From the NCBI RefSeq assembly GCF_003018115.1, contig NZ_CP027457.1: a DNA stretch of 64,000 nt. One strand, given 5' to 3'. This DNA comes from Escherichia coli (lineage in GTDB: Bacteria > Pseudomonadota > Gammaproteobacteria > Enterobacterales > Enterobacteriaceae). The position numbers and the translations under genes are program-made. This document shows, piece after piece, positions 4,635 to 44,506 of this stretch. The notes below the pieces were generated by a model. It saw nothing but the letters and a program-made list of their open reading frames with translations. It searched no databases and was not told where the DNA came from. How positions within the stretch are numbered: position 1 is the first letter of the stretch; every line of letters begins with the position of its first letter.

Positions 4635-4706
4635 GCGGGAAAACTATTTCGCAACGTCGCGCTTGTGGCTAAAATAGCCGCCATTTTTCAGCTACTGGAT
4701 AAGAAT

Positions 4707-25078: not shown

Positions 25079-25897
25079 AAGGATAAATGGCGTTCTCTGT
25101 ATTTATTCGCAATTATCTGTAGGACAAATATGGAGAGCTTGATGAGTCAGAGCTAAAACAGCAATTGATTAATAAACATGTTGATTTATTCAAGAAAATG
25201 GATGTATTTTAAATGTTGATTCTTAATATAACCTAATCAATAGATTATCAAGTGAGAGCTACACATTATTGGAGGGGCAGGGGAAAACACCATTTTGGGA
25301 ACAATGCATCAGGTACTCTTACCACTGAAGCAAGATCATCCGGCACCAGGTGGTGGTGCAGTGCTTTGGAAATGGTCCCCTCGGGGGAGTTGTCATTATT
25401 TTCTATGCTATTTGCTTATTATATTCATCAGGTGAATTTAATAAATTCCTAATTTGAAATATCCACTATTAAGCTAGTGTTTAACGACGTTAAGATGGCA
25501 ATGTGCAGATCATGTTATCAGGGTGGGGCGGTAGCGTATATTCCTTATACAAACCATCATTCATTTCAATGATTGTTATTGAATTATTTATTGTTGTGAA
25601 TAAAAAGACATTATGAATATTGGTTTGACTTTGCATATCAGGTTTTTTATTACTCGCTGTAATGTACGAGCCTGTCGTGAATAACGTCGAGAACCCATCC
25701 GTTGCGTTTGTGATTATTTTGTTGACTAAACAGACACCCGTTTCTCTGAAGTAAAATCCCAGACTAAATCATCACATAACCATGACATTTTTCTGATATT
25801 CCCCGGTAACGCCAGATGTCGACTCGCTTATCTCATCCGCCCGACATGTTGTACATGCAATATGTGCGGATTATTATTCATTTTCACGGAGGTTGCT

Positions 25898-28006
25898 ATG
25901 TCAACCGGATTACGTTTCACACTGGAAGTGGACGGCCTGCCACCGGACGCTTTTGCGGTGGTTTCCTTTCATCTCACCCAGTCACTCTCTTCACTCTTTT
26001 CCCTCGATCTCTCCCTGGTCAGCCAGCAGTTTCTCTCCCTTGAATTTGCGCAGGTGCTGGACAAAATGGCCTACCTGACAATATGGCAGGGTGATGATGT
26101 ACAGCGCCGGGTGAAAGGTGTGGTGACCTGGTTTGAACTGGGGGAGAACGACAAAAACCAGATGCTGTACAGCATGAAGGTGCACCCGCCGCTGTGGCGT
26201 GCCGGTCTGCGCCAGAACTTCCGTATCTTCCAGAACGAGGACATCAAAAGCATCCTCGGCACGATATTGCAGGAAAACGGGGTGACCGAGTGGAGTCCGC
26301 TGTTCAGTGAACCGCATCCTTCCCGTGAGTTTTGTGTCCAGTACGGTGAGACTGATTACGATTTCCTGTGCCGGATGGCGGCGGAGGAAGGCATCTTCTT
26401 TTATGAGGAGCATGCTTACAAAAGTACCGACCAGAGCCTGGTGCTGTGCGACACGGTCCGCCATCTGCCCGAATCTTTTGAAATCCCCTGGAACCCGAAC
26501 CCCCGTACCGAGGTGAGCACCCTCTGCATCAGCCAGTTTCGCTACAGCGCACAAATCCGCCCTTCTTCCGTGGTGACCAAAGACTACACCTTTAAACGCC
26601 CCGGCTGGGCAGGACGTTTTGATCAGGAAGGCCAGCACCAGGATTACCAGCGCACGCAGTATGAGGTGTATGACTACCCCGGACGTTTCAAGGGCGCCCA
26701 CGGGCAGAACTTTGCCCGCTGGCAGATGGAGGGCTGGCGAAACAATGCAGAAACCGCGCGGGGAATGAGTCGCTCGCCGGAGATATGGCCGGGACGGCGA
26801 ATTGTGCTGACGGGGCATCCGCAGGCGAACCTGAACCGGGAATGGCAGGTGGTGGCGAGCGATCTTCACGGCGAACAGCCGCAGGCGGTACCGGGACGCA
26901 GGGGTTCAGGCACCACGCTGGATAACCATTTTGCGGTAATACCGGCAGACCGGACATGGCGACCACAGCCGTTGCTGAAACCGCTGGTGGATGGCCCGCA
27001 GAGCGCCGTCGTGACGGGACCGGCAGGCGAGGAAATCTTCTGCGACGAACATGGTCGCGTGCGGGTGAAATTTAACTGGGACCGCTATAACCCGTCAAAC
27101 CAGGACAGTTCATGCTGGATCCGTGTGGCACAGGCGTGGGCAGGCACCGGCTTTGGCAACCTGGCGATACCGCGTGTGGGTCAGGAGGTGATTGTGGACT
27201 TCCTCAACGGCGATCCGGACCAGCCGATTATTATGGGGCGTACCTACCACCAGGAAAACCGCACACCCGGCAGCCTGCCGGGGACGAAGACGCAGATGAC
27301 CATTCGTTCGAAAACCTATAAGGGCAGCGGGTTTAATGAACTGAAGTTTGACGATGCGACAGGGAAAGAACAGGTCTACATCCACGCGCAGAAGAACATG
27401 AACACCGAGGTGCTGAATAACCGCACCACGGATGTGATAAACAACCATGCTGAGACCATTGGCAACAATCAGATGATTGCGGTTACCAACAATCAGATAC
27501 AGACGGTGGGCGTTAACCAGATAGAGACGGTGGGCAGTAACCAGATCATTAACGTGGGTTCTGTTCAGGTGGAAACGATTGGACTTGTTCGTGCGCTGAC
27601 CGTGGGCGTGGCGTACCAGACGACGGTAGGTGGCATTATGAACACTTCGGTGGCTCTGATGCAGTCCTCGCAGATCGGTTTGCATAAATCGTTGAGGGTC
27701 GGGCTGGGTTATGACGTCAAAGTCGGAAATAACGTTACCTTCACCGTTGGTAAAACGAAAAAGGATGATACCGGGCAGACCGCGATTTACTCCGCCGGTG
27801 AGCATCTGGAGCTCTGCTGTGGTAAGGCAAAGCTGGTGCTGACAAAGGACGGTCAAATTTTTCTCAACGGCACAAAAATTCATTTGCAGGGTAAGGAGCA
27901 GGTTAATGGTGACTCACTGTTGATTAACTGGAACTGTGCAGCCTCGAAATCCCCACCGAAGACCCCTGATGAAAAGCAGGATACGCCGGATATGAGAGAG
28001 TACTGA
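25898..28006 (+). CDS. vgrG: Type VI secretion spike protein VgrG (Rhs-element vgr gene)
   Basis: Start at ATG 25898 (MSTGLRFTLEVDG...) after GGAGG; gp27/gp5-like regions and C-terminal Val-Gly repeats (IQTVGVNQIETVGSNQIINVGSVQVETIG). Confidence 0.85.
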   Translation: MSTGLRFTLEVDGLPPDAFAVVSFHLTQSLSSLFSLDLSLVSQQFLSLEFAQVLDKMAYLTIWQGDDVQRRVKGVVTWFELGENDKNQMLYSMKVHPPLWRAGLRQNFRIFQNEDIKSILGTILQENGVTEWSPLFSEPHPSREFCVQYGETDYDFLCRMAAEEGIFFYEEHAYKSTDQSLVLCDTVRHLPESFEIPWNPNPRTEVSTLCISQFRYSAQIRPSSVVTKDYTFKRPGWAGRFDQEGQHQDYQRTQYEVYDYPGRFKGAHGQNFARWQMEGWRNNAETARGMSRSPEIWPGRRIVLTGHPQANLNREWQVVASDLHGEQPQAVPGRRGSGTTLDNHFAVIPADRTWRPQPLLKPLVDGPQSAVVTGPAGEEIFCDEHGRVRVKFNWDRYNPSNQDSSCWIRVAQAWAGTGFGNLAIPRVGQEVIVDFLNGDPDQPIIMGRTYHQENRTPGSLPGTKTQMTIRSKTYKGSGFNELKFDDATGKEQVYIHAQKNMNTEVLNNRTTDVINNHAETIGNNQMIAVTNNQIQTVGVNQIETVGSNQIINVGSVQVETIGLVRALTVGVAYQTTVGGIMNTSVALMQSSQIGLHKSLRVGLGYDVKVGNNVTFTVGKTKKDDTGQTAIYSAGEHLELCCGKAKLVLTKDGQIFLNGTKIHLQGKEQVNGDSLLINWNCAASKSPPKTPDEKQDTPDMREY

Positions 28007-28073: not shown

Positions 28074-31000
28074 ATGAGCGGAAAACCAGCGGCGCGTCAG
28101 GGAGATATGACTCAGTATGGCGGTCCCATTGTCCAGGGTTCGGCAGGTGTAAGAATTGGCGCGCCAACTGGCGTGGCGTGCTCGGTGTGTCCGGGCGGGA
28201 TGACCTCGGGCAACCCGGTGAACCCGCTGCTCGGTGCAAAAGTACAGCCCGGCGAGACGGACCTTGCGCTGCCCGGCCCGCTGCCGTTCATTCTCTCCCG
28301 CACCTACAGCAGCTACCGGACCCGGACGCCTGCACCGGTGGGCGTTTTCGGCCCCGGCTGGAAAGCGCCTTCTGATATCCGCTTACAGCTACGTGATGAC
28401 GGACTGATACTCAACGACAACGGCGGGCGGAGCATTCACTTTGAGCCGCTGCTGCCAGGGGAGGCGGTGTACAGCCGCAGCGAGTCCCTGTGGCTGGTGC
28501 GCGGTGGTAAGGCAGCACAGCCGGACGGCCATACGCTGGCACGGCTGTGGGCGTCGCTGCCGCCGGATATCCGGTTAAGCCCGCATCTTTACCTGGCGAC
28601 CAACAGCGCACAGGGGCCGTGGTGGATACTGGGGTGGTCTGAGCGGGTGCCGGGTGCTGAGGACGTACTGCCAGCGCCGCTGCCGCCGTACCGGGTGCTT
28701 ACCGGGATGGCGGACCGCTTCGGGCGGACGCTGACGTACCGGCGTGACGGACGGTGCCGGGCGTGAGTTCCGTCTGGTGCTGACCACACAGGCGCAGCGG
28801 GCGGAAGAGGCCCGGCAGCAGGCGGTCGTCGCCGGAGCAAAACGACCGGACATTCCTGATTCACTGCCGGAGAGCACAGAGTACGGCCCCGACAGGGGTA
28901 TCCGTCTTTCAGCGGTGTGGCTGATGCACGACCCGGCATACCCGGAGAATCTGCCCGGTGCGCCACTGGCGCGGTACACGTATACGGAAGCCGGTGAACT
29001 GCTGGCGGTATATGACCGCAGCAATACGCAGGTGCGTGCTTTCACGTATGACCCGCAGCACCCGGGCCGGATGGTGGCGCACCGTTACGCGGGAAGGCCG
29101 GAGATGCGCTACCGCTACGACGATACGGGGCGGGTGGTGGAGCAACTGAACCCGGCAGGGTTAAGCTACCGCTATCTTTATGAGCAGGACCGCATCACCG
29201 TCACCGACAGCCTGAACCGGCGTGAGGTGCTGCATACAGAAGGCGGGGCCGGGCTGAAGCGGGTGGTGAAAAAAGAACTGGCGGACGGCAGCGTCACGCG
29301 CAGCGGGTATGACCCGGTGGGGCGGCTTACGGCGCAGACGGACGCGGCGGGACGGCGGACAGAGTACGGTCTGAATGTGGTGTCAGTCGACATCACGGAT
29401 ATCACCACGCCGGACGGGCGGGAGACGAAATTTTACTATAACGACGGGAACCAGTTAACGGCAGTGGTGTACCCGGACGGGCTGGAGAGCAGCCGGGCAT
29501 ATGATGAGCTGGACAGGCTGGTAACGGAGACATCGCGCAGCGGGGAGACAGTACGCTACCGCTATGATGATGCGCACAGTGAATTACCGGCCACAACAAC
29601 AGATGCGACGGGCAGCACCCGGCAGATGACGTGGAGCCGCTACGGTCAGTTGCTGGCGTTCACCGACTGCTCGGGCTACCAGACCCGCTATGAATACGAC
29701 CGCTTCGGCCAGATGACGGCGGTCCACCGCGAGGAAGGCATCAGCCTTTACCGCCGCTATGACAACCGTGGCCGGTTAATCTCGGTGAAAGACGCACAGG
29801 GCCATGAAACGCGGTATGAATACAACGCCGCAGGCGACCTGACTGCCCTCATTACCCCGGACGGCAACCGGAGCGAGACACAGTACGATGCGTGGGGAAA
29901 GGCGGTCAGCACCACGCAGGGCGGGCTGACGCGCAGTATGGAATACGACCTTGCCGGACGCATCACCACGCTGACCAACGAGAACGGCAGCCGGAGTGAG
30001 TTTACCTACGATGCGCTTGACCGGCTGGTACAGCAGCGCGGCTTTGACGGGCGGACGCAACGTTACCACTATGACCTGACCGGAAAACTCACGCAGAGTG
30101 AAGATGAGGGGCTTGTCACCCTCTGGCACTACGACGAATCGGACCGCCTCACTCACCGCACGGTGAACGGCGAACCGGCAGAGCAGTGGCAGTATGATGG
30201 CCACGGCTGGCTGACAGAAATCAGCCACCTGAGCGAAGGCCATCAGGTGGCGGTGCATTACGGTTATGATGATAAGGGCCGCCTGGCCGGGGAGCGCCAG
30301 ACGGTGCATAACCCGGAGACGGGGGAACTGCTGTGGCAGCATGAGACAGAGCACGCATACAACGAACAGGGGCTGGCAAACCGCGTCACGCCGGACGGCC
30401 TGCCGCGGGTGGAGTGGCTGACCTACGGCAGCGGTTATCTTGCGGGGATGAAGCTGGGCGGGACACCTCTGGTCGAGTATACGCGGGACCGCCTGCACCG
30501 GGAAACTGCGCGCAGCTTTGGTAACGGAACGGGCAGTACAGCCGCATATGAACTGACCAGCACTTACACCCCCGCAGGCCGGTTACAGAGCCAGCACCTG
30601 AACAGCCTGATGTATGACCGTGACTACGTGTGGAATGACAACGGCGACCTGGTGCGCATCAGCGGCCCGCGACAGACGCGGGAATACGGCTACAGCGCCA
30701 CGGGCAGGCTGGAGAGCGTGCGCACCCTCGCACCGGACCTGGACATCCGCATCCCGTATGCCACCGACCCGGCGGGAAACCGGCTGCCGGACCCGGAGCT
30801 ACACCCGGACAGCACGCTCACGGCGTGGCCGGATAACCGCATCGCGGAGGATGCGCACTATGTTTACCACTATGATGAATACGGCAGGCTGACGGAGAAG
30901 ACGGACCGCATCCCGGCGGGTGTGATACGGACGGACGACGAGCGGACCCACCACTACCACTACGACAGCCAGCACCGTCTGGTGTTCTACACGCGGATAC

Positions 31001-32250
31001 AGCATGGCGAGCCGCAGGTGGAGAGCCGCTACCTCTGTGACCCGCTGGGACGGCGAATGGCGAAACGGGTATGGCGGCGGGAGCGTGACCTGACAGGATG
31101 GATGTCGCTGTCGCGTAAACCGGAGGTGACGTGGTATGGCTGGGACGGAGACAGGCTGACGACGGTACAGACAGACCAGACCCGTATCCAGACGGTCTAC
31201 CAGCCGGGGAGCTTCACGCCGCTCATCCGTATCGAGACAGAGAACGGCGAACGGGAGAAAATGCAGCGCCGCAGCCTAGCGGAGAAGTTACAGTCGGAAG
31301 GGAGTGAGGACGGTCACGGTGTGGTGTTCCCGGCTGAGCTGGTGAGGATGCTGGACAGGCTGGAGGAAGAAATCCGGGCAGGCCGCGTGAGCAGTGAAAG
31401 CCGGGCGTGGCTTGCGCAGTGCGGGCTGACGGTGGAGCAACTGGCCAGACAGGTGGAGCCGGAATACACACCGGCGCGAAAAGTTCATCTTTATCACTGC
31501 GACCACCGGGGCCTGCCGCTGGCGCTCATCAGCGAAGACGGCAATACGGCGTGGCGCGGGGAGTATGATGAATGGGGCAACCAGCTTAATGAGGAGAACC
31601 CGCATCATGTGTATCAGCCATACCGCCTGCCGGGGCAGCAGTATGATGAGGAGTCGGGGCTGTACTATAACCGCAACCGGTACTATGATCCGTTGCAGGG
31701 GAGGTATATTACCCAGGATCCGATTGGGCCAGTGGGGGGGTGGAATCCCTATAGTTATGTGCTTAATAATCCAGCCCAGTTTATTGACCCAACAGGTTTA
31801 ACTCAAGAGGACAATTGGACCTATGGTGAGGTAGGTAATAGCTGTGTTACGAGTCAACGCGATTTTACTCCCCCGCCCGGACTTGCGGATATGAAAGCCA
31901 GCATTGGCGCTGCCTGCTCAAGAAACAATGCTTCCAGAAACTGCCACCCCGTAGATGGTAGTAATGCTTCTGCACCATCGGATAAAGCCGCATGGGAAAA
32001 TATTCAAAATGCGACAAATGGTAAAGATTTATCTGGTGGTGGAAATATGTTTTGTGTAGGAAATGAGGACTGTGCGGTTGTTCATAGCTGTCGTGAAATA
32101 GTTAATGCTCGACACCCGGCAGGACGAGTGCGTGAACGTGTAACTCCGTTAACAACGTCAGGAACAGCAACGCTCAATGGAACAACAGTTTACTTTTATA
32201 ATGATCCCCGGAATGGTAATTGTCCTGCTCACGAATATATTCCTCAATAA
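28074..32250 (+). pseudogene. rhsE: PAAR-Rhs polymorphic toxin, copy 1, split by a frameshift near 28740-28766 (ORFs 28074..28766 and 28744..32250)
   Basis: N-terminal PAAR-like region, YD-repeat core, DPxGL boundary. Relative to copy 2 about 38 nt (encoding ...[12 protein letters not shown]...) is missing, shifting the frame. Symbol by K-12 position only. Confidence 0.7.
31801..32250 (+). other. Rhs copy 1 C-terminal variable toxin domain (CT1), function unknown
   Basis: About 149 aa following DPTGL at 31786..31800; drop in GC content; Cys-rich; no motif recognised. Confidence 0.6.
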
Positions 32251-32300
32251 AGAAAGGTGGCCAGACTAAGCTCTAGCCACATTTTTTGGAGATCCTTTTC

Positions 32301-32924
32301 ATGAAAAGGTTTTTTATAACATGTTGCGTTATGACATTATTTTTATTTGTTAAATGTAAAGCAGCGTGTGTAACTTCCTTATATGAGGTTCAGCAATCGC
32401 TCTTTACATACATTTATTTGATTAGACAAGACCCTGTTCATTTTGATTCATATATTAAGAATGTGCATAACGAATTAAAAATATTCCATGATATTGATAA
32501 AGCCATGAATATAGCCTCAGATATGGTCAAAATTATTGATATAAAGACCCGTTTATCATTTAATAATGATTTATATATATTACAAGGGGAGCGACAGTAT
32601 GCAATAGTTAAGAGTGAAGGGGAAAGTAGTCAATTAAAATCATCAGCATTTATCATATCTAATTACCCACCATTTAAAAACAAAGTTCTGTTAATTTTAT
32701 CCGCTACTAGTCCCGTTCAGTTGGTTATATTGTCTTTTGATCAATGTCTTAATGTGGAGGTGTTATTTGATTCAATGTCTCCAGTTTTCGCTAAGTATAG
32801 AGAAGATATTAGTGCAACATTACCATTATGGAAGGTTATTTTGACAAAAAATGATATAGAATTATATGAGTACCATAGAACAAATCCATACTCACTTAAC
32901 AAATTATTGAGCATGTCAAAATAA
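32301..32924 (+). CDS. Putative immunity protein for Rhs CT1 (signal peptide/lipoprotein-like)
   Basis: AT-rich ORF directly downstream of rhs; start at ATG 32301 (MKRFFITCCVMTLFLF...) after GGAG; hydrophobic N-terminus with Cys. Confidence 0.6.
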   Translation: MKRFFITCCVMTLFLFVKCKAACVTSLYEVQQSLFTYIYLIRQDPVHFDSYIKNVHNELKIFHDIDKAMNIASDMVKIIDIKTRLSFNNDLYILQGERQYAIVKSEGESSQLKSSAFIISNYPPFKNKVLLILSATSPVQLVILSFDQCLNVEVLFDSMSPVFAKYREDISATLPLWKVILTKNDIELYEYHRTNPYSLNKLLSMSK

Positions 32925-33121
32925 CGGTCAAGTATTCAACGTTGTAATATTATTCCTTTTGCTGAGTGTCTCGAACGGCTAAAGTTGACGTAAAATGCCA
33001 CGTTTTGTGGGCAAACCGAATCGGTTAAAAAGCATGGTCCGGGAAAAGCTAAACATCAGCGCTATCGGTGCCAAATGTGCAGCAGGCCTTTCCAGCCTGA
33101 TTACCAGGGCAGGGCGGGATC

Positions 33122-34410
33122 AGGGAAAGATCATCAGAAGTTCACTTTTTGTACTAAATAATTTGCATTTTATATTTAAAAATTGAGATATTCCTCATTA
33201 CCTGAAGCTGTTTTTTATTGCTTATACATGATCAAATACTCCTTACATAATTAAGGAGAACAAAATGGAACTTAAAAAATTGATGGAACATATTTCTATT
33301 ATCCCTGATTACAGACAAGCCTGGAAAGTGGAACATAAATTATCGGATATTCTACTGTTGACTATTTGTGCCGTTATTTCTGGTGCAGAAAGCTGGGAAG
33401 ATATAGAGGATTTTGGTGAAACACATCTCGATTTTTTGAAGCAATATGGTGATTTTGAAAATGGTATTCCTGTTCACGATACCATTGCCAGAGTTGTATC
33501 CTGTATCAGTCCTGCAAAATTTCACGAGTGCTTTATTAACTGGATGCGTGACTGCCATTCTTCAGATGATAAAGACGTCATTGCAATTGATGGAAAAACG
33601 CTCCGGCACTCTTATGACAAGAGTCGCCGCAGGGGAGCGATTCATGTCATTAGTGCGTTCTCAACAATGCACAGTCTGGTCATCGGACAGATCAGGACGG
33701 ATGAGAAATCTAATGAGATTACAGCTATCCCAGAACTTCTTAACATGCTGGATATTAAAGGAAAAATCATCACAACTGATGCGATGGGTTGCCAGAAAGA
33801 TATTGCAGAGAAGATACAAAAACAGGGAGGTGATTATTTATTCGCGGTAAAAGGAAACCAGGGGCGGCTAAATAAAGCCTTTGAGGAAAAATTTCCGCTG
33901 AAAGAATTAAATAATCCAGAGAATGACAGTTACGCAATTAGTGAAAAGAGTCACGGCAGAGAAGAAATCCGTCTTCATATTGTTTGCGATGTCCCTGATG
34001 AACTTATTGATTTCACGTTTGAATGGAAAGGGCTAAAGAAATTATGCGTGGCAGTCTCCTTTCGGTCCATAATAGCAGAACAAAAGAAAGAGCCAGAAAT
34101 GACGGTCAGATATTATATCAGTTCTGTTGATTTAACCGCAGAGAAGTTCGCCACAGCAATCCGAAACCACTGGCACGTGGAGAATAAGCTGCACTGGCGT
34201 CTGGACGTGGTAATGAATGAAGACGACTGCAAAATAAGAAGAGGAAATGCAGCAGAATTATTTTCAGGGATACGGCACATCGCTATTAATATTTTGACTA
34301 ATGATAAGGTATTCAAGGCAGGGTTAAGACGTAAGATGCGAAAAGCAGCCATGGACAGAAACTATCTGGCGTCAGTCCTTGCGGGGAGCGGGCTTTCGTA
34401 ATCTTGCCCT
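33122..34410 (+). mobile_element. H-repeat (H-rpt, ISAs1-family) element, copy 1
   Basis: About 1.29 kb unit bounded by imperfect inverted repeats AGGGAAAGAT ... ATCTTGCCCT; three near-identical copies in the window. Confidence 0.8.
33265..34401 (+). CDS. ISAs1-family transposase (H repeat-associated protein), copy 1
   Basis: 378-aa [31 protein letters not shown]...; DDE-type transposase family. Confidence 0.85.
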
Positions 34411-35114
34411 GGGGCAACCTGCTTAATGAGGAGAACCCACATCACCTGTATCAGCCATACCGCCTGCCGGGGCAGCAGCATGATGAGGAGTCAGGGCTTT
34501 ATTATAACCGTCACCGGTACTATGACCCGCTACAGGGGAGGTATATCACCCAGGATCCAATCGGGCTAAGAGGTGAATGGAATCTGTATAAATATCCATT
34601 AAACCCTGTTCGGTTTATAGATTCTTTGGGTTTAAAATTCCATGTTAACGGTGATCCAAGTGATTTTAATCAGGCTGTTGAGTATTTAAAACAAGATTCA
34701 CGAATGAAAGAAGCTATAGATTTTTTATCAAGCTCTGAAGAAACCATAAAGATAGAGTATATTGATGAAACCGACGTTAGATTTGACCTGGATAAAATGA
34801 CTATATATTGGAATAGTAAGGCGGCTTTATTTTGTTCAACTGATTTAAAATCGAAATCACAATCACCTGCATTAGGTTTGGGGCATGAGTTTGCTCATGC
34901 GCACTTATATCTTATTGATAAGGATGGTTATATGGGGCTTGTGAGACGTGCGGATGAACAATATAAAAATAAAGAAGAGGCGAGAGTTATCACTTTAATT
35001 GAACAGCATGCGGCGAAAACTTTAGGTGAGTGTACCAGAACAGCATATAATGGAGTGTATTATCGTGTGAATACACCAACGCAGACGGCAACAATAAATG
35101 GCACGCCAGAATAG
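34404..35114 (+). CDS. Orphan Rhs C-terminal fragment with HExxH (zincin-like metallopeptidase) toxin domain (orphan CT-a)
   Basis: Begins at the H-rpt right end with the rhs core 3' end ([18 protein letters not shown]...DPIGL...[13 protein letters not shown]), then a divergent domain containing [10 protein letters not shown]; probably lacks its own start codon. Confidence 0.65.
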
Positions 35115-35575
35115 TGAGATTTTTCATGATGAAATATTTGATGGCTTTATTGTCTCTATTTTCTGCTTCGGTATTGGGGATGGGGCGAGTGAATGATTTA
35201 TGTGGAATAGATAGTGTGAAAACGATAGAAATAATTAATCTTCCAGCATATGTTACCACCTTAACCCCGCTTAGCAAGGAAGGTCTCAAGAGAATATACA
35301 AACATAAAGTGGTGGTGAATGGGGTTAGCGATTTTTATGCTGGTGAGATAATTGATCTATTGCAAATGAAGTATTTCAGGAAGGAGGAGGATAACGATAT
35401 AAGATGGGGGGTTAACATTGTTTCGAATAAAAATAATAAATGTGAAATTTATTTTGATGGTTTTGGTGAATGTGGAAGCGTGAATGGCATTAATGTATGT
35501 TTTGAAAAAAATGAAATGATATATTGGATTAAAAAAGAAATCCCTTTTCTGTCGCAAGAAATAGATGGGCTTTAA
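35114..35575 (+). CDS. Putative secreted immunity protein for orphan CT-a
   Basis: ORF overlapping the toxin stop; likely start at ATG about 35126 (MMKYLMALLSLFSASVLG..., signal peptide); AT-rich. Confidence 0.6.
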   Translation: MRFFMMKYLMALLSLFSASVLGMGRVNDLCGIDSVKTIEIINLPAYVTTLTPLSKEGLKRIYKHKVVVNGVSDFYAGEIIDLLQMKYFRKEEDNDIRWGVNIVSNKNNKCEIYFDGFGECGSVNGINVCFEKNEMIYWIKKEIPFLSQEIDGL

Positions 35576-35651: not shown

Positions 35652-38600
35652 ATGAGCGGAAAACCGGCGGCGCGGCAGGGCGACATGACCCGCAAGGGAC
35701 TGGATATTGTGCAGGGTTCAGCGGGTGTGCTGATAGGTGCGCCGACGGGAGTGGCCTGTTCGGTGTGTCCGGGAGGGATTACCTATGCTAACCCGGTGAA
35801 CCCGGTGCTGGGTGCGAAGGTGCTGCCGGGCGAGACGGACCTTGCGCTGCCCTGCCCGCTGCCGTTTATTCTTTTCCGCGCCTACAGCAGCTACCGGACC
35901 AGAACACCCGCGCCGGTGGGGGTGTTTGGTCCCGGCTGGAAAGCGCCCTTCGATATCCGCTTACAGATACGCGATGAAGGCCTGATACTCAACGACAGCG
36001 GCGGCAGGAGCATTCACTTTGAGCCGCTGTTTCCCGGCGAGATAAGCTACAGCCGCAGCGAGTCACTCTGGCTGGCGCGGGGCGGAGTAGCGGCGCAGCA
36101 CAGTTCGCAGCCGCTAAGCGCGCTCTGGCAGGTGCTGCCGGAAGATGTTCGCCTGAGTCCGCATGTGTACCTGGCGACAAACAGCCTTCAGGGGCCGTGG
36201 TGGATACTCAGCTGGCCGGAGCGGGTGCCGGGGGCGGACGAGGTGCTGCCGCCGGAGCCGCCCGCATACCGGGTGCTGACGGGCGTGGTGGACGGCTTCG
36301 GGCGGACGCTGGCCTTTCACCGGGCAGCGGAGGGTGACGTGGCGGGCGCGGTGACGGGGGTGACGGACGGCGCGGGCCGCCGTTTTCACCTGGTGCTGAC
36401 CACACAGGCGCAGCGGGCGGAAGAGGCCCGTAAACCGCACACCGCTTCGTTATCTTCCCCTGACAGTCCCCGCCCTCTCTCAGCTCCTTCCTTCCCCGAC
36501 ACGCTGCCCGCCGGTACAGAGTACGGTGCCGATAACGGTATCCGGCTGGAGGCGGTATGGCTGACACACGACCCGGCATACCCGGATGAACAGCCGACTG
36601 CGCCGCTGGCGCGCTACACGTACACGGCCGGTGGTGAACTGCGGGCGGTGTATGACCGCAGCGGGACGCAGGTGCGCGGGTTTACTTATGATGCGGAGCA
36701 CGCCGGGCGGATGGTGGCGCACCATTATGCGGGTAGGCCGGAGAGCCGCTACCGGTATGATGATACCGGTCGGGTGACGGAGCAGGTCAACCCGGAGGGG
36801 CTGGACTACCGCTTTGAGTACGGAGAGAGCCGGGTAATCATCACGGACAGCCTGAACCGGCGGGAGGTGCTGTACACGGAAGGCGAGGGTGGCCTGAAGC
36901 GGGTGGTGAAGAAGGAGCATGCCGACGGGAGCATCACCCGCAGCGAGTATGATGAGGCGGGGAGGCTGAAGGCGCAGACGGATGCGGCGGGGCGGCGGAC
37001 GGAGTACCGGCTGCATATGGCGTCTGGAAAGCTGACTTCAGTGGTACTGCCGGACGGCAGGACGGTACGGTATGGTTACAACAACCAGTTGCAACTGACG
37101 TCAGTGACATATCCGGATGGTTTACGCAGCAGCCGGAAATATGACCGTCAGGGCAGGCTGGCGGAAGAGACCTCGCGCAACGGTAACATTACGCGCTGGT
37201 TTTATGATTCTTCCCGCAGTGGCCTGCCCTGTGCGGTGGAAGACGGAACCGGGGTGAGGCGGAGAATAACGCGAAACCGGTACGGTCAGCTTCAGGCGTT
37301 TACGGACTGCTCGGGGTACACGACGCGGTATGAGTATGACCGGTACGGTCAACAAATCGCCGTTCACCGGGAAGAAGGCATCAGCACTTACAGCAGTTAT
37401 AACCCGCGCGGTCAACTGGTCAGTCAGAGGGATGCGCAGGGGCGTGAAACCCGTTATGAGTACAGCGCCGCAGGAGACCTGACAGCAACGGTATCACCGG
37501 ACGGTAAACGCAGCACCATCGCATATGATAAACGCGGGCGTCCGGTGAGTGTGACGGAAGGCGGTCTGACGCGCAGCATGGGGTATGACGCTGCCGGGCG
37601 CATCACCGTGCTGACCAACGAGAACGGCAGCCAGTCCACGTTCCGGTATGACCCGGTTGACAGGCTGACTGAACAGCGCGGTTTTGACGGCCGGACGCAA
37701 CGTTACCACTATGACCTGACCGGAAAACTCACACAGAGTGAAGACGAGGGGCTTATCACCCTCTGGCACTACGATGCGTCGGACCGCATCACGCACCGGA
37801 CGGTGAACGGCGACCCGGCAGAGCAGTGGCAGTATGATGAGCACGGGTGGTTAACCACCCTCAGCCATACCAGTGAAGGCCACCGCGTGTCGGTCCACTA
37901 CGGCTATGACGATAAAGGCCGCCTGACCAGTGAGCGCCAGACGGTGGAGAACCCGGAGACGGAGGAACTGCTGTGGCAGCATGAGACAGAGCACGCATAC
38001 AACGAGCAGGGGCTGGCAAACCGCGTCACGCCGGACAGCCTGCCGCCGGTGGAGTGGCTGACGTATGGCAGCGGCTATCTGGCGGGCATGAAGCTGGGCG
38101 GGACGCCGCTGCTGGAGTTCACGCGCGACCGCCTGCACCGTGAGACGGTGCGCAGCTTCGGCAGCAGGGCAGGCAGTAATGCCGCATATGAACTGACCAG
38201 CACATACACCCCCGCAGGCCAGTTACAGAGTCAGCACCTGAACAGCCTGGTATATGACCGTGACTACGGGTGGAATGACAACGGCGACCTGGTGCGCATC
38301 AGCGGCCCGCGACAGACGCGGGAATACGGCTACAGTGCCACGGGCAGGCTGGAGAGCGTGCGCACCCTCGCACCGGACCTGGACATCCGCATCCCGTATG
38401 CCACGGACCCGGCGGGCAACCGGCTGCCGGACCCGGAGCTGCACCCGGACAGTACCCTCACAGTGTGGCCGGATAACCGCATCGCGAAGGATGCGCACTA
38501 TGTTTACCACTACGATGAATACGGCAGACTGACGGAGAAGACGGACCGCATCCCGGCGGGTGTGATACGGACGGACGACGAGCGGACCCATCACTACCAT

Positions 38601-39845
38601 TACGACAGCCTGCACCGCCTGGTCCATTACATCCGTATCCAATATGAGGAGCCACTGGTGGAGAGCCGCTACCTCTATGATCCGCTGGGCCGCCGGACGG
38701 GTAAACGGGTGTGGCGGCGGGAGCGTGACCTGACGGGGTGGATGTCGCTGTCGCGTAAACCGGAGATGACATGGTACGGCTGGGACGGAGACCGCCTGAC
38801 GACGGTACAGACAGACACCACGCGAATCCAGACGGTCTACCTGCCGGGGAGCTTCACGCCGCTCATCCGCATCGAAACGGAGAACGGCGAACGGGAGAAA
38901 GCGCAGCGTCGCAGTCTGGCGGAGAAGTTACAGTCGGAAGGGAGTGAGGACGGTCACGGTGTGGTGTTCCCGCCTGAACTGGTGATGATGCTGGACAGGC
39001 TGGAGGGAGAGATACGGGCAGACCGCGTGAGCCGTGAAAGTCGCCAGTGGCTGGCGCAGTGCGGACTGACGGTGGAGCAACTGGCCAGACAGGTGGAGCC
39101 GGAATACACACCGGCGCGAAAAGTTCATCTCTATCACTGCGACCACCGTGGCCTGCCGCTGGCGCTCATCAGCGAAGACGGCAATATAGCGTGGAACGCG
39201 GAGTATGATGAGTGGGGCAACATGCTGAACGAGGAGAACCCGCATCACCTGTATCAGCCATACCGCCTTCCGGGTCAGCAGTACGATGAGGAGTCGGGGC
39301 TGTACTATAACCGGAACCGGTACTATGATCCGTTGCAGGGGAGGTATATCACCCAGGACCCGATAGGGCTGATGGGGGGATGGAACCCTTACCTTTATCC
39401 GTTAAATCCTGTCACAAATACTGACCCTCAGGGGTTAGAAGCGATTCTTCCTGGTCCGTTCCCCTTCCCAATTCCATTGCCAAAAAGTCCTGTACAGCAG
39501 GAAGCAGATGCAAATGCAGCAAAAACATTGACAAAATGGTGGAAAAACTTTGGAGATGCCATTAATAATCCGCCACCTCCTGGTAATTGTTCTAATGATT
39601 ATTATGAACATCTGAAAAATCAAAAAGAAGCTATTTGCAACCAAAAAAGAAAGTGTTACCCAACCGATAGTTGTGAAACTATACTTCAGAAAGGTGTGTA
39701 TGGTCTTGCTTGTGTATCAGCAAGGAATAATATTATGAATCAATGTTTTAATGGAGGTGATTTACGGCATCAGCTTGAAAGAGAAACGGTCAGGGGAACT
39801 ATGATGTCATGTACTACATTGGCTGTAATAAAAGGATGTTTATAA
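35652..39845 (+). CDS. Intact PAAR-Rhs polymorphic toxin, copy 2 (1397 aa)
   Basis: AAGGA Shine-Dalgarno; N-terminal PAAR-like region (CSVCPGG), YD repeats, conserved ...PxxxxDPxGL boundary (DPQGL at 39423..39437), variable C-terminus. Confidence 0.9.
39438..39845 (+). other. Rhs copy 2 C-terminal toxin domain (CT2), Cys-rich, function unknown
   Basis: About 135 aa after DPQGL; Pro-rich linker then Cys-rich segment (CSNDYYEHL...[14 protein letters not shown]...CVSARNN...C); AT-rich. Confidence 0.6.
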
Positions 39846-40370
39846 ATGGGAAAAGACGAGATCATAGATTATATTCAGAAAACGTTTTCTGAATATCCAG
39901 ATTATTTGAAAAATGGGGTCGTTGATGAAGACAACATTGCATATTGCCATGACGCTATAAACCTTTTTTCTGGAAAGAGTTGGATTGAATTAATGGCCAG
40001 TGATCTTTACCATTCTGAAGATGCTGTCATGTGTCTCACTAAACCAGCATTCTCATATTATATTGCAGCCTATTTAAAACTTTTTATTGAAAATTATTAC
40101 GAAGCTGATGCTTTAGTGGATACTATTTTAAATATGCTCACTCCTCCTGTTAGGAATGGTATCCCCAGCACTACATGGATAGCAAAAAATCTTGATTGCT
40201 TTAGTCGTAATAAAAGGGTGGCTATTTCTTTTACATTCCAATATTTATGTAATGAATATAATGATCCAAATACTGAAAAGGCGTTAAATATATATTGGGG
40301 ACAGTATCTGAATGAATCATTGCTTATTAAAAATGTACAGAACTCTAAAAATAAATGTAAATCACAGTAA
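39846..40370 (+). CDS. Putative cytoplasmic immunity protein for Rhs CT2
   Basis: 174-aa ORF whose ATG overlaps the rhs stop (TAAATG); no signal peptide; AT-rich. Confidence 0.65.
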   Translation: MGKDEIIDYIQKTFSEYPDYLKNGVVDEDNIAYCHDAINLFSGKSWIELMASDLYHSEDAVMCLTKPAFSYYIAAYLKLFIENYYEADALVDTILNMLTPPVRNGIPSTTWIAKNLDCFSRNKRVAISFTFQYLCNEYNDPNTEKALNIYWGQYLNESLLIKNVQNSKNKCKSQ

Positions 40371-40374
40371 GACA

Positions 40375-40575
40375 GAATCAAGCAGAAATCGTGGGCGTGG
40401 TTCGCACCCTGACGGAGGGTGTAGCGTGTACTAGATCACAGTGAGCGACATCAAAGCTTGGTCACGTTCTGGCATTACGATGAAGCCGACCGCCTGACGC
40501 ACCGTACCGTGAATGATGAAGATGCCGAGTGCTGGCAGTACAACGAACGGGGCTAGCTGACGGAAAAAGACGAGC
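40375..40575 (+). repeat. Degenerate vgrG-like and rhs-core-like sequence relics
   Basis: 40380..40440 translates to ...EIVGVVRTLTEGVA... (VgrG VG-repeat-like); 40455..40570 translates to [32 protein letters not shown]-stop (Rhs core-like, compare 30115..30230). Confidence 0.55.
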
Positions 40576-40582
40576 AGCGCAT

Positions 40583-41870
40583 AGGGAAAGATCATCAGAA
40601 GTTCACTTTTTGTACTAAATAATTCGCATTTTATGTTTAAAAATTGAGATATTCCTCATTACCTGAAGCTGTTTTTATTGCTTATACATGATCAAATACT
40701 CCTTACATAATTAAGGAGAACAAAATGGAACTTAAAAAACTGATGAAACATATTTCTATTATCCCCGATTACAGACAAGCCAGGAAAGTAGAACATAAAT
40801 TGTCAGATATTCTACTGTTGACTATTTGTGCCGTTATTTCTGGTGCAGAAGGCTGGGAAGATATAGAGGATTTTGGGGAAACACATCTCGATTTTTTGAA
40901 GCAATATGGTGATTTTGAAAATGGCATTCCTGTTCACGATACCATTGCCAGAGTTGTATCCTGTATCAGTCCTGCAAAATTTCACGAGTGCTTTATTAAC
41001 TGGATGCGTGACTGCCATTCTTCAGATGATAAAGACTTCATTGCAATTGATGGAAAAACGCTCCGGCACTCTTATGACAAGAGTCGCCGCAGGGGAGCGA
41101 TTCATGTCATTAGTGCGTTCTCAACAATGCACAGTCTGGTCATCGGACAGATCAAGACGGATGAGAAATCTAATGAGATTACAGCTATCCCAGAACTTCT
41201 TAACATGCTGGATATTAAAGGAAAAATCATCACAACTGATGTGATGGGTTGCCAGAAAGATATTGCAGAGAAGATACAAAAACAGGGAGGTGATTATTTA
41301 TTCGCGGTAAAAGGAAACCAGGGGCGGCTAAATAAAGCCTTTGAGGAAAAATTTCCGCTGAAAGAATTAAATAATCCAGAGCATGACAGTTACGCAATCA
41401 GTGAAAAGAGTCACAGCAGAGAAGAAATCCGTCTTCATATTGTTTGCGATGTCCCTGATGAACTTATTGATTTCACGTTTGAATGGAAAGAGCTGAAGAA
41501 ATTATGCGTGGCAGTCTCCTTTCGGTCAATAATAGCAGAACAAAAGAAAGAGCCAGAAATGACGGTCAGATATTATATCAGTTCTGCTGATTTAACCGCA
41601 GGGAAGTTCGCCACAGCAATCCGAAGCCACTGGCACGTGGAGAATAAGCTGCACTGGCGTCTGGACGTGGTAATGAATGAAGACGACTGCAAAATAAGAA
41701 GAGGAAATGCAGCAGAATTATTTTCAGGGATACGGCACATTGCTATTAATATTTTGACGAATGATAAGGTATTCAAGGCAGGGTTAAGACGTAAGATGCG
41801 AAAAGCAGCCATGGACAGAAACTATCTGGCGTCAGTCCTTGTGGGGAGCGGGCTTTCGTAATCTTGCCCT
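40583..41870 (+). mobile_element. H-repeat (ISAs1-family) element, copy 2
   Basis: Same terminal sequences as copy 1. Confidence 0.8.
40725..41861 (+). CDS. ISAs1-family transposase (H repeat-associated protein), copy 2
   Basis: 378-aa ORF nearly identical to copy 1 with a few substitutions. Confidence 0.85.
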
Positions 41871-42486
41871 GCCAGGGCAGCAACACGATGAGGAGTCGGG
41901 GCTGTATTATAACCGTCACCGGTACTACGATCCGTTGCAGGGGTGGTATATCATCCAGGACCCGATTGGGCTGAAGGGGGGATGGAATCTGTACCAATAT
42001 CCGCTGAATCCAGTGCAACACGTTGATCCATTAGGGCTTAGTACTATGATAATAGGTAACGGCCCCGTTCCTGATAATCCTTTTGGGCATGCTGCGGCGG
42101 CAAATCGATATGGATTAATGAGTTCGGGAACTGGGGATGAGATGGGAGCCTCTGTCTCTGATTATTTTAAAAAGATGCAACCCCGCAGAGATACCTGGAT
42201 TTGGATAATAGATACAACAGATGAAGAAGAACAATGTATGATGAATAAGGCAATAGACCTTAATAAAAAACTAAAAACTATTAACCTCGGGCCTCTTCCT
42301 GTTTTAAATAATTGTTTTAGCCGAACGAACATGATTTTTGAGGCGTGCGGGTTTAACAACCCCTCTATGAATACAAATGCGCCTATAAGCCTACAAGTGC
42401 TCGGTGAGCTTTATGGATATCAAAGATATATTATGCCTAAAGGTCCTTTCACTGGATTCCCATTTGAATTTCAAGAGGTAAAGTAA
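41839..42486 (+). CDS. Orphan Rhs C-terminal fragment with unknown toxin domain (orphan CT-b)
   Basis: From the H-rpt right end: [35 protein letters not shown]...[13 protein letters not shown], then a divergent about 149-aa domain ([10 protein letters not shown]..., two Cys). Confidence 0.6.
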
Positions 42487-42885
42487 ATGGAAATGCTTGG
42501 GAAGATATTATTGATAATTATTTCCATGATAATTATATCTTGTGATTATTATAATGCTGGCATGGACTATCAAGATAATATAGCCCTCGAGCAAGTCGTA
42601 ACATGGGATTCTGATAATATATTCACACCTAATATCTTTGAACATAATGGAAGATGTTTTATGAAGAAAAATGAAACATGGATGTTATTAAATGGAGATG
42701 CAACACCAAACATTAGAACAATGAGCAATAAGAAAATAGAATGCCTGGAGAAGAGTGAAGTAGAATGGGCTAGTAGGGTTTGCGACAGTATCACAGACAA
42801 GGAAAGGGAAAATCTGAAGGCATTAATATGTAGCAAACCAGCTAAATCAGTTAATACAGGCAAAAGACCAGCGTTAGGATATTGA
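42487..42885 (+). CDS. Putative lipoprotein immunity protein for orphan CT-b
   Basis: 132-aa ORF abutting the toxin stop; N-terminal hydrophobic segment ending in a lipobox-like IISC. Confidence 0.6.
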   Translation: MEMLGKILLIIISMIIISCDYYNAGMDYQDNIALEQVVTWDSDNIFTPNIFEHNGRCFMKKNETWMLLNGDATPNIRTMSNKKIECLEKSEVEWASRVCDSITDKERENLKALICSKPAKSVNTGKRPALGY

Positions 42886-42917
42886 AACCGGCACTGCACT
42901 CTATCACTATTACAATC

Positions 42918-44205
42918 AGGGAAAGATCATCAGAAGTTCACTCTTTGTACTAAATAATTCGCATTTTATGTTTAAAAATTGAGATATTCCTCATTACCTG
43001 AAGCTGTTTTTATTGCTTATACATGATCAAATACTCCTTACATAATTAAGGAGAACAAAATGGAACTTAAAAAACTGATGGAACATATTTCTATTATCCC
43101 CGATTACAGACAAGCCTGGAAAGTAGAACATAAATTGTCAGATATTCTACTGTTGACTATTTGTGCCGTCATTTCTGGTGCAGAGGGTTGGGAAGATATA
43201 GAGGATTTTGGTGAAACACATCTCGATTTTTTGAAGCAATATGGTGATTTTGAAAATGGTATTCCTGTTCACGATACCATTGCCAGAGTTGTATCCTGTA
43301 TCAGTCCTGCAAAATTTCACGAGTGCTTTATTAACTGGATGCGTGACTGCCATTCTTCAGATGATAAAGACGTCATTGCAATTGATGGAAAAACGCTCCG
43401 GCACTCTTATGACAAGAGTCGCCGCAGGGGAGCGATTCATGTCATTAGTGCGTTCTCAACAATGCACAGTCTGGTCATCGGACAGATCAAGACGGATGAG
43501 AAATCTAATGAGATTACAGCTATCCCAGAACTTCTTAACATGCTGGATATTAAAGGAAAAATCATCACAACTGATGCGATGGGTTGCCAGAAAGATATTG
43601 CAGAGAAGATACAAAAACAGGGAGGTGATTATTTATTCGCGGTAAAAGGAAACCAGGGGCGGCTAAATAAAGCCTTTGAGGAAAAATTTCCGCTGAAAGA
43701 ATTAAATAATCCAGAGCATGACAGTTACGCAATCAGTGAAAAGAGTCACAGCAGAGAAGAAATCCGTCTTCATATTGTTTGCGATGTCCCTGATGAACTT
43801 ATTGATTTCACGTTTGAATGGAAAGGGCTGAAGAAATTATGCGTGGCAGTCTCCTTTCGGTCCATAATAGCAGAACAAAAGAAAGAGCCAAAAATGACGG
43901 TCAGATATTATATCAGTTCTGCTGATTTAACCGCAGAGAAGTTCGCCACAGCAATCCGAAACCACTGGCACGTGGAGAATAAGCTGCACTGGCGTCTGGA
44001 CGTGGTAGTGAATGAAGACGACTGCAAAATAAGAAGAGGAAATGCAGCAGAATTATTTTCAGGGATACGGCACATTGCTATTAATATTTTGACGAATGAT
44101 AAGGTATTCAAGGCAGGGTTAAGACGTAAGATGCGAAAAGCAGCCATGGACAGAAACTATCTGGCGTCAGTCCTTGCGGGGAGCGGGCTTTCGTAATCTT
44201 GCCCT
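42918..44205 (+). mobile_element. H-repeat (ISAs1-family) element, copy 3
   Basis: Same terminal sequences; right flank is the native pptA upstream region. Confidence 0.8.
43060..44196 (+). CDS. ydcC: ISAs1-family transposase (H repeat-associated protein), copy 3
   Basis: 378-aa ORF; symbol by position next to pptA as in K-12. Confidence 0.8.
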
Positions 44206-44506
44206 GGTTCGTTAAGTTTTTCTGCATTGCCGGTAATTTTGGCATCTTCTTTGTCCGTGGCTTGTTTCAGCGTCTATAATGGGCATTAATAAATTGGCAA
44301 GCCGGGAACTTGATGTTTTCTTAATGGCATGTTGGCGAAGAATATATTCTGCAAGTTAACGTTTTTGTTGGCGCTTTATTTAAAACGGGGTAGTACAAAT
44401 ATGTACAAATTCAAGTAGGCATTATTGTCGTAAAAAAGCATCACCGGACACATGACATTCACAACGTGTGTTAATTTTACTGACATCTTTCCAAAGGAGC
44501 ACAATC

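Follow-up and report, generated by a model that had tools for sequence, protein, structure and literature searches.

In the 64,000-nucleotide stretch of Escherichia coli DNA analysed here (the window), a 1,046-bp cassette (41872-42917) lies in the vgrG-rhsE island between two direct copies of an ISAs1 element. The cassette contains a 56-codon Rhs core tail, an intact 148-aa C-terminal (CT) toxin domain and a 132-aa open reading frame (ORF), all on the plus strand. On its left, the second ISAs1-family element of the window (ISEc1/H-repeat; 40583..41871, plus strand; NCBIfam transpos_ISAs1, E 7e-122) adjoins the orphan rhs fragment with its right end, and on its right the cassette is closed by the third copy (42918..44206, plus strand), next to which lies pptA. 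The spacer between the immunity stop and this last element, as read from the sequence, is 32 bp long (42886..42917). The second copy, as a 1,289-bp repeat, shares 97.8-98.7% identity with those at 33122-34411 and 42918-44206, and ISAs1 copies bound each orphan in the window, an interleaving also known from the classical E. coli arrangement of rhs with H-repeats. The core tail (41872..42039, plus strand; LPGQQ...DPLGL) belongs to an ORF (41839-42486) that reads in frame through the ISAs1 right end at 41871 and is Rhs-derived from 41872. Residues 8-67 of this ORF match the RHS_core model NF041261 (positions 1202-1261 of 1261) and TIGR03696 (E 2e-31 and 1e-20, respectively), in both cases through to the last position of the model, and the match ends at DPLGL (42025-42039, plus strand), the DPxGL autoproteolysis motif formed by the last codons of the tail. 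A tail of the PxxxxDPxGL type, that of the Rhs C-terminal module, is therefore found directly before the variable CT. The YD-repeat shell and the PAAR/delivery region were not found in the orphan protein, and a fragment that lacks both and abuts an ISAs1 end is an orphan Rhs-CT, as the original prediction had proposed from the core tail ending in DPLGL; the span then given, 41871-42885, is correct to within one base. The CT and immunity gene are AT-rich (34% GC) against a GC-rich core, and an AT-rich tip on a GC-rich core is usual for Rhs. The region is best explained as a displaced orphan Rhs-CT and immunity cassette, severed from any Rhs shell by ISAs1 insertion.

The divergent domain expected after DPLGL is present, with a length of 148 aa (42040-42483; 42040..42486 with the stop, plus strand) and not the 149 aa first proposed. 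It contains three Cys, has no hydrophobic segment by hydropathy and, as predicted, is unrelated to the CT of the first orphan (BLASTP E = 4). A frameshift in the toxin, which would have made it a pseudogene, is ruled out by comparison with the Rhs-fused copies, against which both ORFs are intact and the toxin ORF is full length. The family to which the domain belongs comprises 334 clusters, and the domain is C-terminal in 150 of 166 hits. In a 42-sequence alignment (25-84% identity) Cys92 (codon 42313..42315, plus strand; NNCFSRTN) is invariant and His17 (codon 42088..42090, plus strand; FGHAAA) nearly so, with His17 being invariant among close relatives. Both residues are kept in 153 of the 166 family hits, where the His precedes the Cys, the spacing being 75 residues in the window CT and 64-91 across the family. 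The structural model of the CT places the two residues, the predicted catalytic His and nucleophile, at the start of a strand (17-22) and at the N-terminus of a helix (92-102), respectively. Polar candidates for completing a triad after the His strand are Ser28 (at least 90% conserved) and the invariant Asn13 and Arg50, the spacing of which is unlike the +17 of TseH and Lnb.

At the sequence level the CT has no Pfam, NCBIfam or PDB match, and a profile of the family alignment (A4) gave only chance matches against PDB sequences. An OCRE match of the toxin ORF was rejected because it falls in the Rhs tail, and YjhT/NANM matches were rejected as noise. The remote homology search proposed as a check in the original prediction yielded the fold model and the Lnb_N link of the relatives, and no direct sequence-level match of the CT. 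Lnb_N (PF13387) is the sole Pfam family matched, being reached by 4 of the 42 CT relatives at E<=1e-3 (best E 2e-6), and the window CT gives nothing against it even at E<=10. In a structure search the CT model matches the permuted NlpC/P60 fold of TseH, YiiX, Lnb and Tox-Act1, RID being another match. Among the non-Rhs Foldseek matches, DUF4105 models come first (E 3e-6 to 1e-4), and TseH is the second-best structural match. The model has the papain-like alpha+beta core of the solved permuted NlpC/P60 members and falls in their branch (YiiX, TseH, RID, Lnb/DUF4105), not with canonical P60 or Tae. This model makes the CT a predicted papain-like Cys-His enzyme from the circularly permuted NlpC/P60 group; the prediction concerns a common E. 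coli Rhs tip so far without name or domain annotation.

The closest characterised toxin is that of Tox-Act1/Imm-Act1, the Salmonella SPI-6 T6SS effector STox_15 (PLoS Biol 2026, PMC12994826). The two toxins share the character of an antibacterial polymorphic-toxin domain without Pfam match, a circularly permuted NlpC/P60 core with His before Cys, and a membrane-associated immunity protein. Their local motifs are similar, namely GH-A, NNC-T... and, about 20 residues on, P[IV]SLQ; the NNCFSRTN of the CT resembles NNCTTHS, the Tox-Act1 motif that holds the mutated C151. Homologues of Tox-Act1 are carried on Rhs, PAAR or CdiA-type proteins (S3A table of PMC12994826). The HMM score between the CT family and Tox-Act1 is 7-8 bits, over NNC...P[IV]SLQ, and hhalign of A4 against five genuine Tox-Act1 orthologues was not significant (probability 1%, E 0.046). 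His and Cys are 75 residues apart in the window CT and 108 in Tox-Act1, the domain has 148 aa against about 250 aa, and Tox-Act1 is stand-alone or PAAR-fused whereas the window CT is an Rhs tip. Imm-Act1 homologues are two-TM proteins of about 90 aa, whereas the immunity protein of the window is a predicted lipoprotein of 132 aa from an unrelated family. None of six accessions or organism names taken from CT hits occurs in the supplementary files of PMC12994826, and organism names from two additional comparisons likewise led to no Tox-Act1 entry. The example that this study gives from E. coli, QMP79959.1 (CP057959), which is placed in its DUF4105b sheet, was not found in the E. coli collection searched. 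In metagenomes, a back-translated pattern of the Tox-Act1 His43 region found nothing and the Cys151 pattern found 9 loci.

TseH of the Vibrio cholerae T6SS pair TseH/TsiH (PDB 6v98, Pfam DUF6695; triad His64-Glu81-Cys172) is 6% identical to the CT, which has no DUF6695 match, and differs in carrier and immunity. Lnb/DUF4105, the Bacteroides lipoprotein N-acyltransferase, is a periplasm-facing Cys enzyme handling acyl chains, but it has a housekeeping role and five TM helices, while the window CT is a soluble toxin tip. YiiX/YaeF (Peptidase_C92; PDB 2if6, 3kw0) are 8-12% identical to the CT, which has no C92 Pfam match, and are not toxins. Outside this fold, the Tle/Tli pairs of type VI secretion are similar in combining a lipid-targeting, periplasm-acting effector with an exported and often lipidated immunity protein; Tle enzymes belong to the serine lipases or are of the PLD type, whereas the toxin of the window has a predicted papain-like Cys-His fold on Rhs. 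A Stenotrophomonas Rhs preprint considered as a related system was rejected as unrelated.

The putative cognate immunity gene (42487..42885, plus strand) begins with an ATG at 42487, directly after the toxin TAA, and has AGAGG 8 nt upstream. The N-terminus of its 132-aa product reads MEMLGKILLIIISMIIISC followed by DYY, and 42487..42546 (plus strand) encodes a predicted signal peptide and lipobox (MEMLGKILLIIISMIIIS-C19) and then Asp20 at position +2. The lipobox-like start noticed in the original prediction holds under rule-based lipoprotein patterns: LIIISMIIISC, with Cys19 and Lys6, agrees with PROSITE PS51257 ({DERK}(6)-[LIVMFWSTAG](2)-[LIVMFYSTAGCQ]-[AGS]-C; Cys placed at 15-35 and K/R among the first 7), as it does with the pattern of G+LPPv2. 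PS51257 is passed by 5 of the 159 first-ATG ORFs in the window, three of these being the same out-of-frame IS ORF and one looking like a genuine lipoprotein. There is a single, N-terminal hydrophobic segment (Kyte-Doolittle maximum 3.65 at residue 12), and S18-C19-D20 is invariant in 8 immunity homologues, the most distant at 58% identity, whose h-region is variable. One member of an immunity cluster bears the UniProt name 'Lipoprotein'. The mature protein has four invariant Cys besides that of the lipobox and is probably steadied by two disulfides. Its structure prediction is poor (pLDDT 59), and searches of Pfam, NCBIfam and PDB sequences with the immunity protein gave nothing meaningful. 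In E. coli, Asp at +2 causes lipoproteins to avoid the Lol system and to be retained in the inner membrane; judged from its sequence, the immunity protein is predicted to be a lipoprotein kept in the inner membrane via Asp20 and facing the periplasm. In the E. coli genomes examined this ORF always lies 3' of this CT, and the pair co-occurs in 543 genomes; it is present in Salmonella as well. The fold and family of the toxin, the bounding by ISAs1, the usual full-length Rhs carrier and the retention predicted from Asp at +2 were not part of the original prediction.

The same kind of immunity protein recurs across the family. Next to distant relatives of the CT, 26 of 26 downstream ORFs have an N-terminal membrane anchor or lipobox, a feature of 10% of control ORFs. 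Asp occupies +2 in six of those that bear a lipobox, and the other members of this immunity family have a TM anchor. By hhalign, the immunity protein of the window aligns with the 13-sequence anchored immunity family of the distant relatives at a moderate probability of 81%, and the alignment with a single distant downstream ORF was negative. The membrane or lipobox anchoring of all 26 of these ORFs supports action of the toxin outside the cytoplasm, and the candidate periplasm-acting toxin of the original prediction is supported both by them and by the permuted NlpC/P60 model. Rhs tips are mostly nucleases or other toxins acting in the cytoplasm, and TseH and Tox-Act1 are toxic solely in the periplasm (PMC12994826). 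Tox-Act1 requires its His and Cys and yields lyso-PG and lyso-PE, phospholipase activity of TseH was seen in the assay of the same study, and every tested member of the permuted branch, TseH included, acts on acyl chains (PMC12994826). By pure analogy with these enzymes, the substrate of the CT would be membrane phospholipid. The permuted NlpC/P60 placement would extend the envelope-lipid toxin type of Tox-Act1 and TseH to an Rhs-borne family of 334 clusters, and it is accompanied by a matching immunity family that is systematically inner-membrane-anchored.

The same cassette and fold could also belong to a peptidoglycan amidase or endopeptidase that is blocked by a periplasmic lipoprotein. 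The NlpC/P60 superfamily fold is that of the classical Tse1/Tae effectors, TseH was originally described as a cell-wall hydrolase (PMC12994826), and a periplasmic lipoprotein immunity is compatible with either target. This target is nevertheless fairly unlikely, given that the CT model matches the permuted branch and not canonical P60/Tae, that the tested members of this branch act on acyl chains, and that an immunity family that Asp+2 lipoboxes or TM segments fix to the inner membrane suits a membrane lipid better than the sacculus. A second possibility keeps the acyl chemistry and changes the target: the toxin could be an acyltransferase or deacylase acting on lipoproteins or another acylated envelope molecule, and not on bulk phospholipid. 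Kinship with Lnb, which N-acylates lipoproteins via Cys148, argues for it, since no Pfam family other than Lnb_N is matched by any relative and DUF4105 models lead the non-Rhs Foldseek matches. RID, which is an N-epsilon-fatty-acyltransferase, is also among the structural matches. Lipoproteins have been raised as possible targets of Tox-Act1 as well (PMC12994826), but Tox-Act1, the single assayed member of the family, behaves as a phospholipase and the window CT itself lacks the Lnb_N match, which leaves a lipoprotein target distinctly unlikely. In a more specific and very doubtful form, an Lnb-like acyl-transferring toxin would mis-acylate or de-acylate lipoproteins, or modify another periplasmic target with phospholipid as the donor, and the immunity family, tethered throughout to the inner membrane by an Asp+2 lipid anchor or a TM helix, would serve as a decoy or competitive substrate at the level of the membrane and not simply as a plug of the active site. 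If true, this would be a new T6SS killing mechanism in about 10% of E. coli.

The module is present in 566 of 5,426 complete E. coli genomes (about 10%), and in 31 of 40 sampled rows it is annotated under a full 'RHS element core protein'; elsewhere in E. coli this CT mostly serves as the principal toxin of a full-length Rhs and as chief effector of the vgrG-rhsE island. In strain DA33137, where the chromosomal site is the same, vgrG is immediately followed by a 1,409-aa Rhs with this CT and immunity at its end. Between the window and Rhs-fused copies, the toxin differs by 3 aa and the immunity protein by 2 aa. In such full-length strains, a PAAR-Rhs beside vgrG would be capped by this CT. Release of the CT by autoproteolysis within the cage is established Rhs biology, and self-cleavage at DPLGL would accordingly free the toxin inside the Rhs cage before its delivery by type VI secretion into a neighbouring cell. 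On arrival the CT would act in the periplasm, on the outer face of the inner membrane, where Cys92 may form an acyl-thioester, by analogy with Tox-Act1, TseH, LRAT/PLAAT, RID and Lnb. The toxin would most likely strip or transfer fatty-acyl chains of membrane phospholipids in the manner of a phospholipase A, and the lysolipids produced would lead to lysis. The immunity protein would undergo export, receive its lipid on Cys19, stay in the inner membrane owing to Asp at +2 and block the toxin where it acts.

In the window itself, the orphan toxin gene may be regarded as an archived copy. The only in-frame upstream start of its ORF is a TTG inside the IS end, an internal ATG at 42046 (MIIGNGP...) has a weak SD-like TAGGG 9 nt upstream, and a promoter and terminator scan performed no better than on shuffled sequences (8 promoter-like sites vs 5.0 +/- 1.9). 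With neither a delivery module nor convincing start signals for the toxin, the immunity gene is most likely the working part of the cassette; the toxin has no means of delivery here. The orphan immunity gene would most likely guard against the roughly one in ten E. coli that carry the toxin, and for the window strain this would mean resistance to neighbours firing it and no extra weapon. The proposal as a whole, an orphan phospholipase-like Rhs-CT with a periplasmic lipoprotein immunity of which the latter is the working part, is judged to have a somewhat better than even chance of being right.

Translation from the ATG at 42046 would, on the other hand, make the orphan toxin and its immunity a toxin-antitoxin-like pair inside the producer. 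PGAP calls a 146-aa ORF from the exactly corresponding ATG in F9792, the Met is conserved, several metagenomic homologues (P0003, P0007) are given this start by gene callers, and the title of PMC7043789 presents RHS-elements, for the Salmonella orphan rhs, as 'type II toxin-antitoxin modules'. A toxin made in the cytoplasm would, however, never come into contact with a lipoprotein antidote in the periplasm, enzymes of the Tox-Act1 type are harmless in the cytoplasm, and the weak TAGGG comes with no promoter signal above chance, so that such a pair is highly improbable.

The orphan modules of Salmonella LT2 (PMC3967940) and the CDI/Rhs orphans (PMC3150448) are similar, with a short core-tail fragment, CT and immunity 3' of the main rhs, and the idea common to orphan modules is that toxins are stored silently and the immunity genes form a protective reserve. 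Unlike in these systems, the core homology in the window is very short and diverged (86% identity over 144 bp with 39266-39409 of the main rhs, the longest identical stretch being 22 bp) and two direct IS copies bracket the cassette. Given this short homology, exchange with the main rhs by recombination, of the sort selected in Salmonella, looks inefficient. This scarcity of homology, together with the flanking IS copies, the missing delivery domain and an in-frame loss of 39 bp from the immunity gene of closely related O169:H41 strains, would fit a cassette that is inert debris of IS-driven rearrangement, with neither gene expressed or selected in the window strain. Against it stand the intactness of both ORFs, which share 97.9-100% identity with copies from vgrG-Rhs loci that look active, the good SD and start codon retained by the immunity gene, and the protective orphan immunity genes known from the Rhs/CDI orphan literature, which together render inert debris very improbable. 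The cassette is real, common and of a recently recognised kind.

The cassette at 41872-42917 is an orphan Rhs tip, an ordinary architectural type, whose toxin (CT-b) belongs to a widespread, uncharacterised family, its mechanistic kind having been defined only recently, partnered by an immunity family predicted to be anchored in the inner membrane. Rhs-derived DNA starts at 41872, straight after the IS terminal ...ATCTTGCCCTG, and 56 core codons are kept, which align with the far C-terminal end of the RHS_core and Rhs_assc_core models and terminate at DPLGL (42025-42039). CT-b follows at 42040-42483 (148 aa, then TAA), and the immunity ORF starts at 42487, the base directly after the toxin stop codon, with an AGAGG Shine-Dalgarno sequence 8 nt upstream. 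The cassette is real as described in the original prediction, with coordinates off by at most one base, and sequence comparison agrees that CT-b has no relation to CT-a, the first orphan tip of the island. The toxin domain carries no frameshift relative to the CT ending the 1,409-aa Rhs of strain DA33137, from which the window differs by 3 residues in the toxin and 2 in the immunity protein. Both the earlier observation and its interpretation are supported, and are made sharper here.

CT-b had no match in Pfam, NCBIfam or PDB sequences, and a word-based search turned up no more than about 19 close relatives, in Enterobacteriaceae. When 1.84 billion representatives were searched with a profile, 334 clusters were recovered (133 at E<=1e-10). 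The domain is C-terminal in 150 of the 166 retrieved family matches, and the carrier proteins, many with RHS/YD-shell Pfam domains, reach 2,489 aa. Across 42 aligned sequences (25-84% identity) Asn13, Gly16, Gly25, Gly30, Arg50 and Cys92 are invariant and His17 nearly so, with both His and Cys present in 153/166 family matches at a spacing of 64-91 residues. In the AlphaFold2 model (pLDDT 79.6, pTM 0.80) His17 opens a strand and Cys92 lies at a helix N-terminus. Rhs tips headed the Foldseek hits against AFDB50; after them came a large number of DUF4105/'Lnb N-terminal periplasmic domain' proteins (E 3e-6 to 1e-3), together with a YaeF/YiiX C92 enzyme. At the level of sequence, Pfam Lnb_N was matched by 4/42 toxin relatives (best E 2e-6) and PPPDE, weakly, by two of the 42. 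Taken together, the model geometry, the AFDB50 hits and the Pfam matches lead us to predict that CT-b is a circularly permuted NlpC/P60 (papain-like) Cys-His enzyme, with the caveat on the fold that Foldseek of the model against the PDB gave no match. One metagenomic contig (L005) encodes a toxin relative and an unrelated neighbouring toxin, at 3001-3687 and 4060-4743, which share, at their start, a Sec-type signal peptide and a minimal Rhs tail (MK..LLFLTTQAHAVLFWARPYNPNLQRW.TRDPIGEQGG); this suggests secreted mini-Rhs cassettes in tandem.

The closest characterised toxin is Tox-Act1, a Salmonella SPI-6 T6SS effector with a permuted NlpC/P60 core (PMC12994826, PLoS Biol 2026). Its toxicity is confined to the periplasm and requires His43 and Cys151, its action releases lyso-PG, lyso-PE and free fatty acids, and a two-TM immunity protein neutralises it. 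The authors' tree makes it the sister of DUF4105/Lnb, with TseH as a further relative; they detected phospholipase activity for TseH too, and their homologue table holds many Rhs-, PAAR- and CdiA-fused proteins (PMC12994826). Lnb is a Bacteroides lipoprotein N-acyltransferase working via Cys148. The published Tox-Act1 mutagenesis primers (PMC12994826) were back-translated into search patterns, and the Cys151 pattern led to nine PAAR-Tox-Act1 loci whose neighbouring genes encode two-TM proteins resembling Imm-Act1. Profile-profile comparison of the CT-b family with Tox-Act1 was not significant (hhalign probability 1%), and the HMM comparison reached only 7-8 bits, over common NNC-x-T... and P[IV]SLQ motifs. 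The two also differ in His-Cys spacing (75 in CT-b, 108 in Tox-Act1), in domain size and in immunity type, a predicted lipoprotein as against a two-TM protein. CT-b is therefore filed as a toxin of the permuted NlpC/P60 kind, and not as a proven Tox-Act1 clade member. In table S3 of the same study, the E. coli Rhs QMP79959.1, cited as a Tox-Act1 homologue in the text, sits in the DUF4105b (Firmicutes) sheet, and the TseH sheet holds two Salmonella Rhs tips; the permuted NlpC/P60 tips of enterobacterial Rhs proteins are therefore of no fewer than three different types.

That the toxin acts in the periplasm, as originally proposed, gains support independent of this analogy. In a set of distant relatives (28 genomic loci and two metagenomic ones), all 26 downstream ORFs examined have a hydrophobic N-terminal anchor, as against 10% of control ORFs from the same loci (binomial p about 1e-26, with a crude control and loci that are not phylogenetically independent), a pattern that supports action of the family outside the cytoplasm. 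A lipobox is present in about a dozen, with Asp at +2 in five (six with the window's immunity protein). Thirteen form one family, TM-anchored or lipidated, with an EYSxLQ...W(I/V)xLN signature; its link to the window immunity protein (hhalign probability 81%, E 1e-5) is suggestive only, since the signal region contributes to the score. Other relatives are followed by ankyrin-repeat lipoproteins or small TM-anchored proteins. The former (…GANVEAHAxDGWTPLT…), just downstream of toxin homologues at loci L015, L016, L024 and L028, would be a second, unrelated type of putative immunity protein against toxins of this fold.

The lipobox-like start noted earlier for the immunity ORF holds up, as its N-terminus, MEMLGKILLIIISMIIISC followed by DYY, passes both the PROSITE PS51257 and G+LPPv2 patterns, with Cys19 as the lipobox cysteine, and its one strong hydrophobic segment is N-terminal. 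Among eight homologues (down to 58% identity) Ser18-Cys19-Asp20 is invariant while the hydrophobic region drifts, and Cys 57, 86, 99 and 115 are also invariant, which fits an exported, disulfide-bonded protein; UniProt calls one member of the cluster 'Lipoprotein'. Because Asp at +2 is the classical signal for Lol avoidance in E. coli, the immunity protein is predicted to be retained in the inner membrane, facing the periplasm. Its structure model was too weak for use. In O169:H41 genomes, elsewhere 99.8-100% identical to the window, 39 bp of the immunity gene (window 42574-42612) are missing, leaving in NZ_CP024273 (locus L002, 10626-10985) a protein of 119 aa without DNIALEQVVTWDS, compared with the full 132 aa in the window; the deleted segment overlaps the motif that the window protein shares with the distant immunity family.

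The window holds the E. coli vgrG-rhsE island, bordered by yncG/yncH and pptA-yddH-nhoA-yddE-narV; F9792 and other ETEC O169:H41 genomes are almost identical to it. After vgrG (25862-28006) comes an rhs (28074-32250) that a frameshift close to codon 229 splits into ORFs 28074-28766 and 28744-32250, so that it looks inactivated, then an ORF at 32286-32924 with a hydrophobic, Cys-rich N-terminus (MKRFFITCCVMTLFLFVKCKAAC), ISAs1 copy 1 (33122-34411) and orphan CT-a with its immunity ORF (34412-35575). An HExxH-type motif makes the CT-a toxin a candidate zinc metallopeptidase; the ORF that follows it (35114-35575) has a signal-peptide-like start, MKYLMALLSLFSASVLG, without a lipobox. The intact main Rhs (1,397 aa, 35652-39845) and its immunity ORF (39846-40370) make up 35652-40370, and the cassette lies between ISAs1 copies 2 (40583-41871) and 3 (42918-44206, with pptA next). 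Three of the four immunity-position ORFs look exported, the main Rhs immunity alone appearing cytoplasmic. Rhs core DNA is about 60-70% GC and the tips AT-rich (about 34% GC), the usual Rhs pattern.

Among 5,426 complete E. coli genomes, 566 carry this pair of CT and immunity gene; in 31/40 sampled rows it sits under a full 'RHS element core protein', one fused example (DA33137) lying directly past vgrG at the same locus. In the window it is severed from Rhs: upstream, a TTG within the IS end is the sole in-frame start, the PGAP call in F9792 starts instead at an internal ATG (42046), and promoter-like sites are no commoner than chance. We infer that the toxin gene survives as an archived copy, with selection acting on the immunity gene. 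Capture of orphan tips by the main rhs through recombination has been seen in Salmonella (PMC3967940). Here such capture should be inefficient, because homology between the cassette and the resident main rhs is short and diverged (144 bp at 86%, longest exact run 22 bp). The three direct ISAs1 copies are far better substrates for recombination. These ISAs1/ISEc1 (H-repeat) copies, of 1,289-1,290 bp and 97.8-98.7% identical, each encode an intact 378-aa transposase, and copies 2 and 3 flank the cassette in a composite-element-like arrangement. To the left of copy 2 lies an rhs YD-repeat fragment (40440-40582), and to the left of copy 1 an IS1 InsA-like fragment (32960-33121), both annotated as pseudogenes in F9792.
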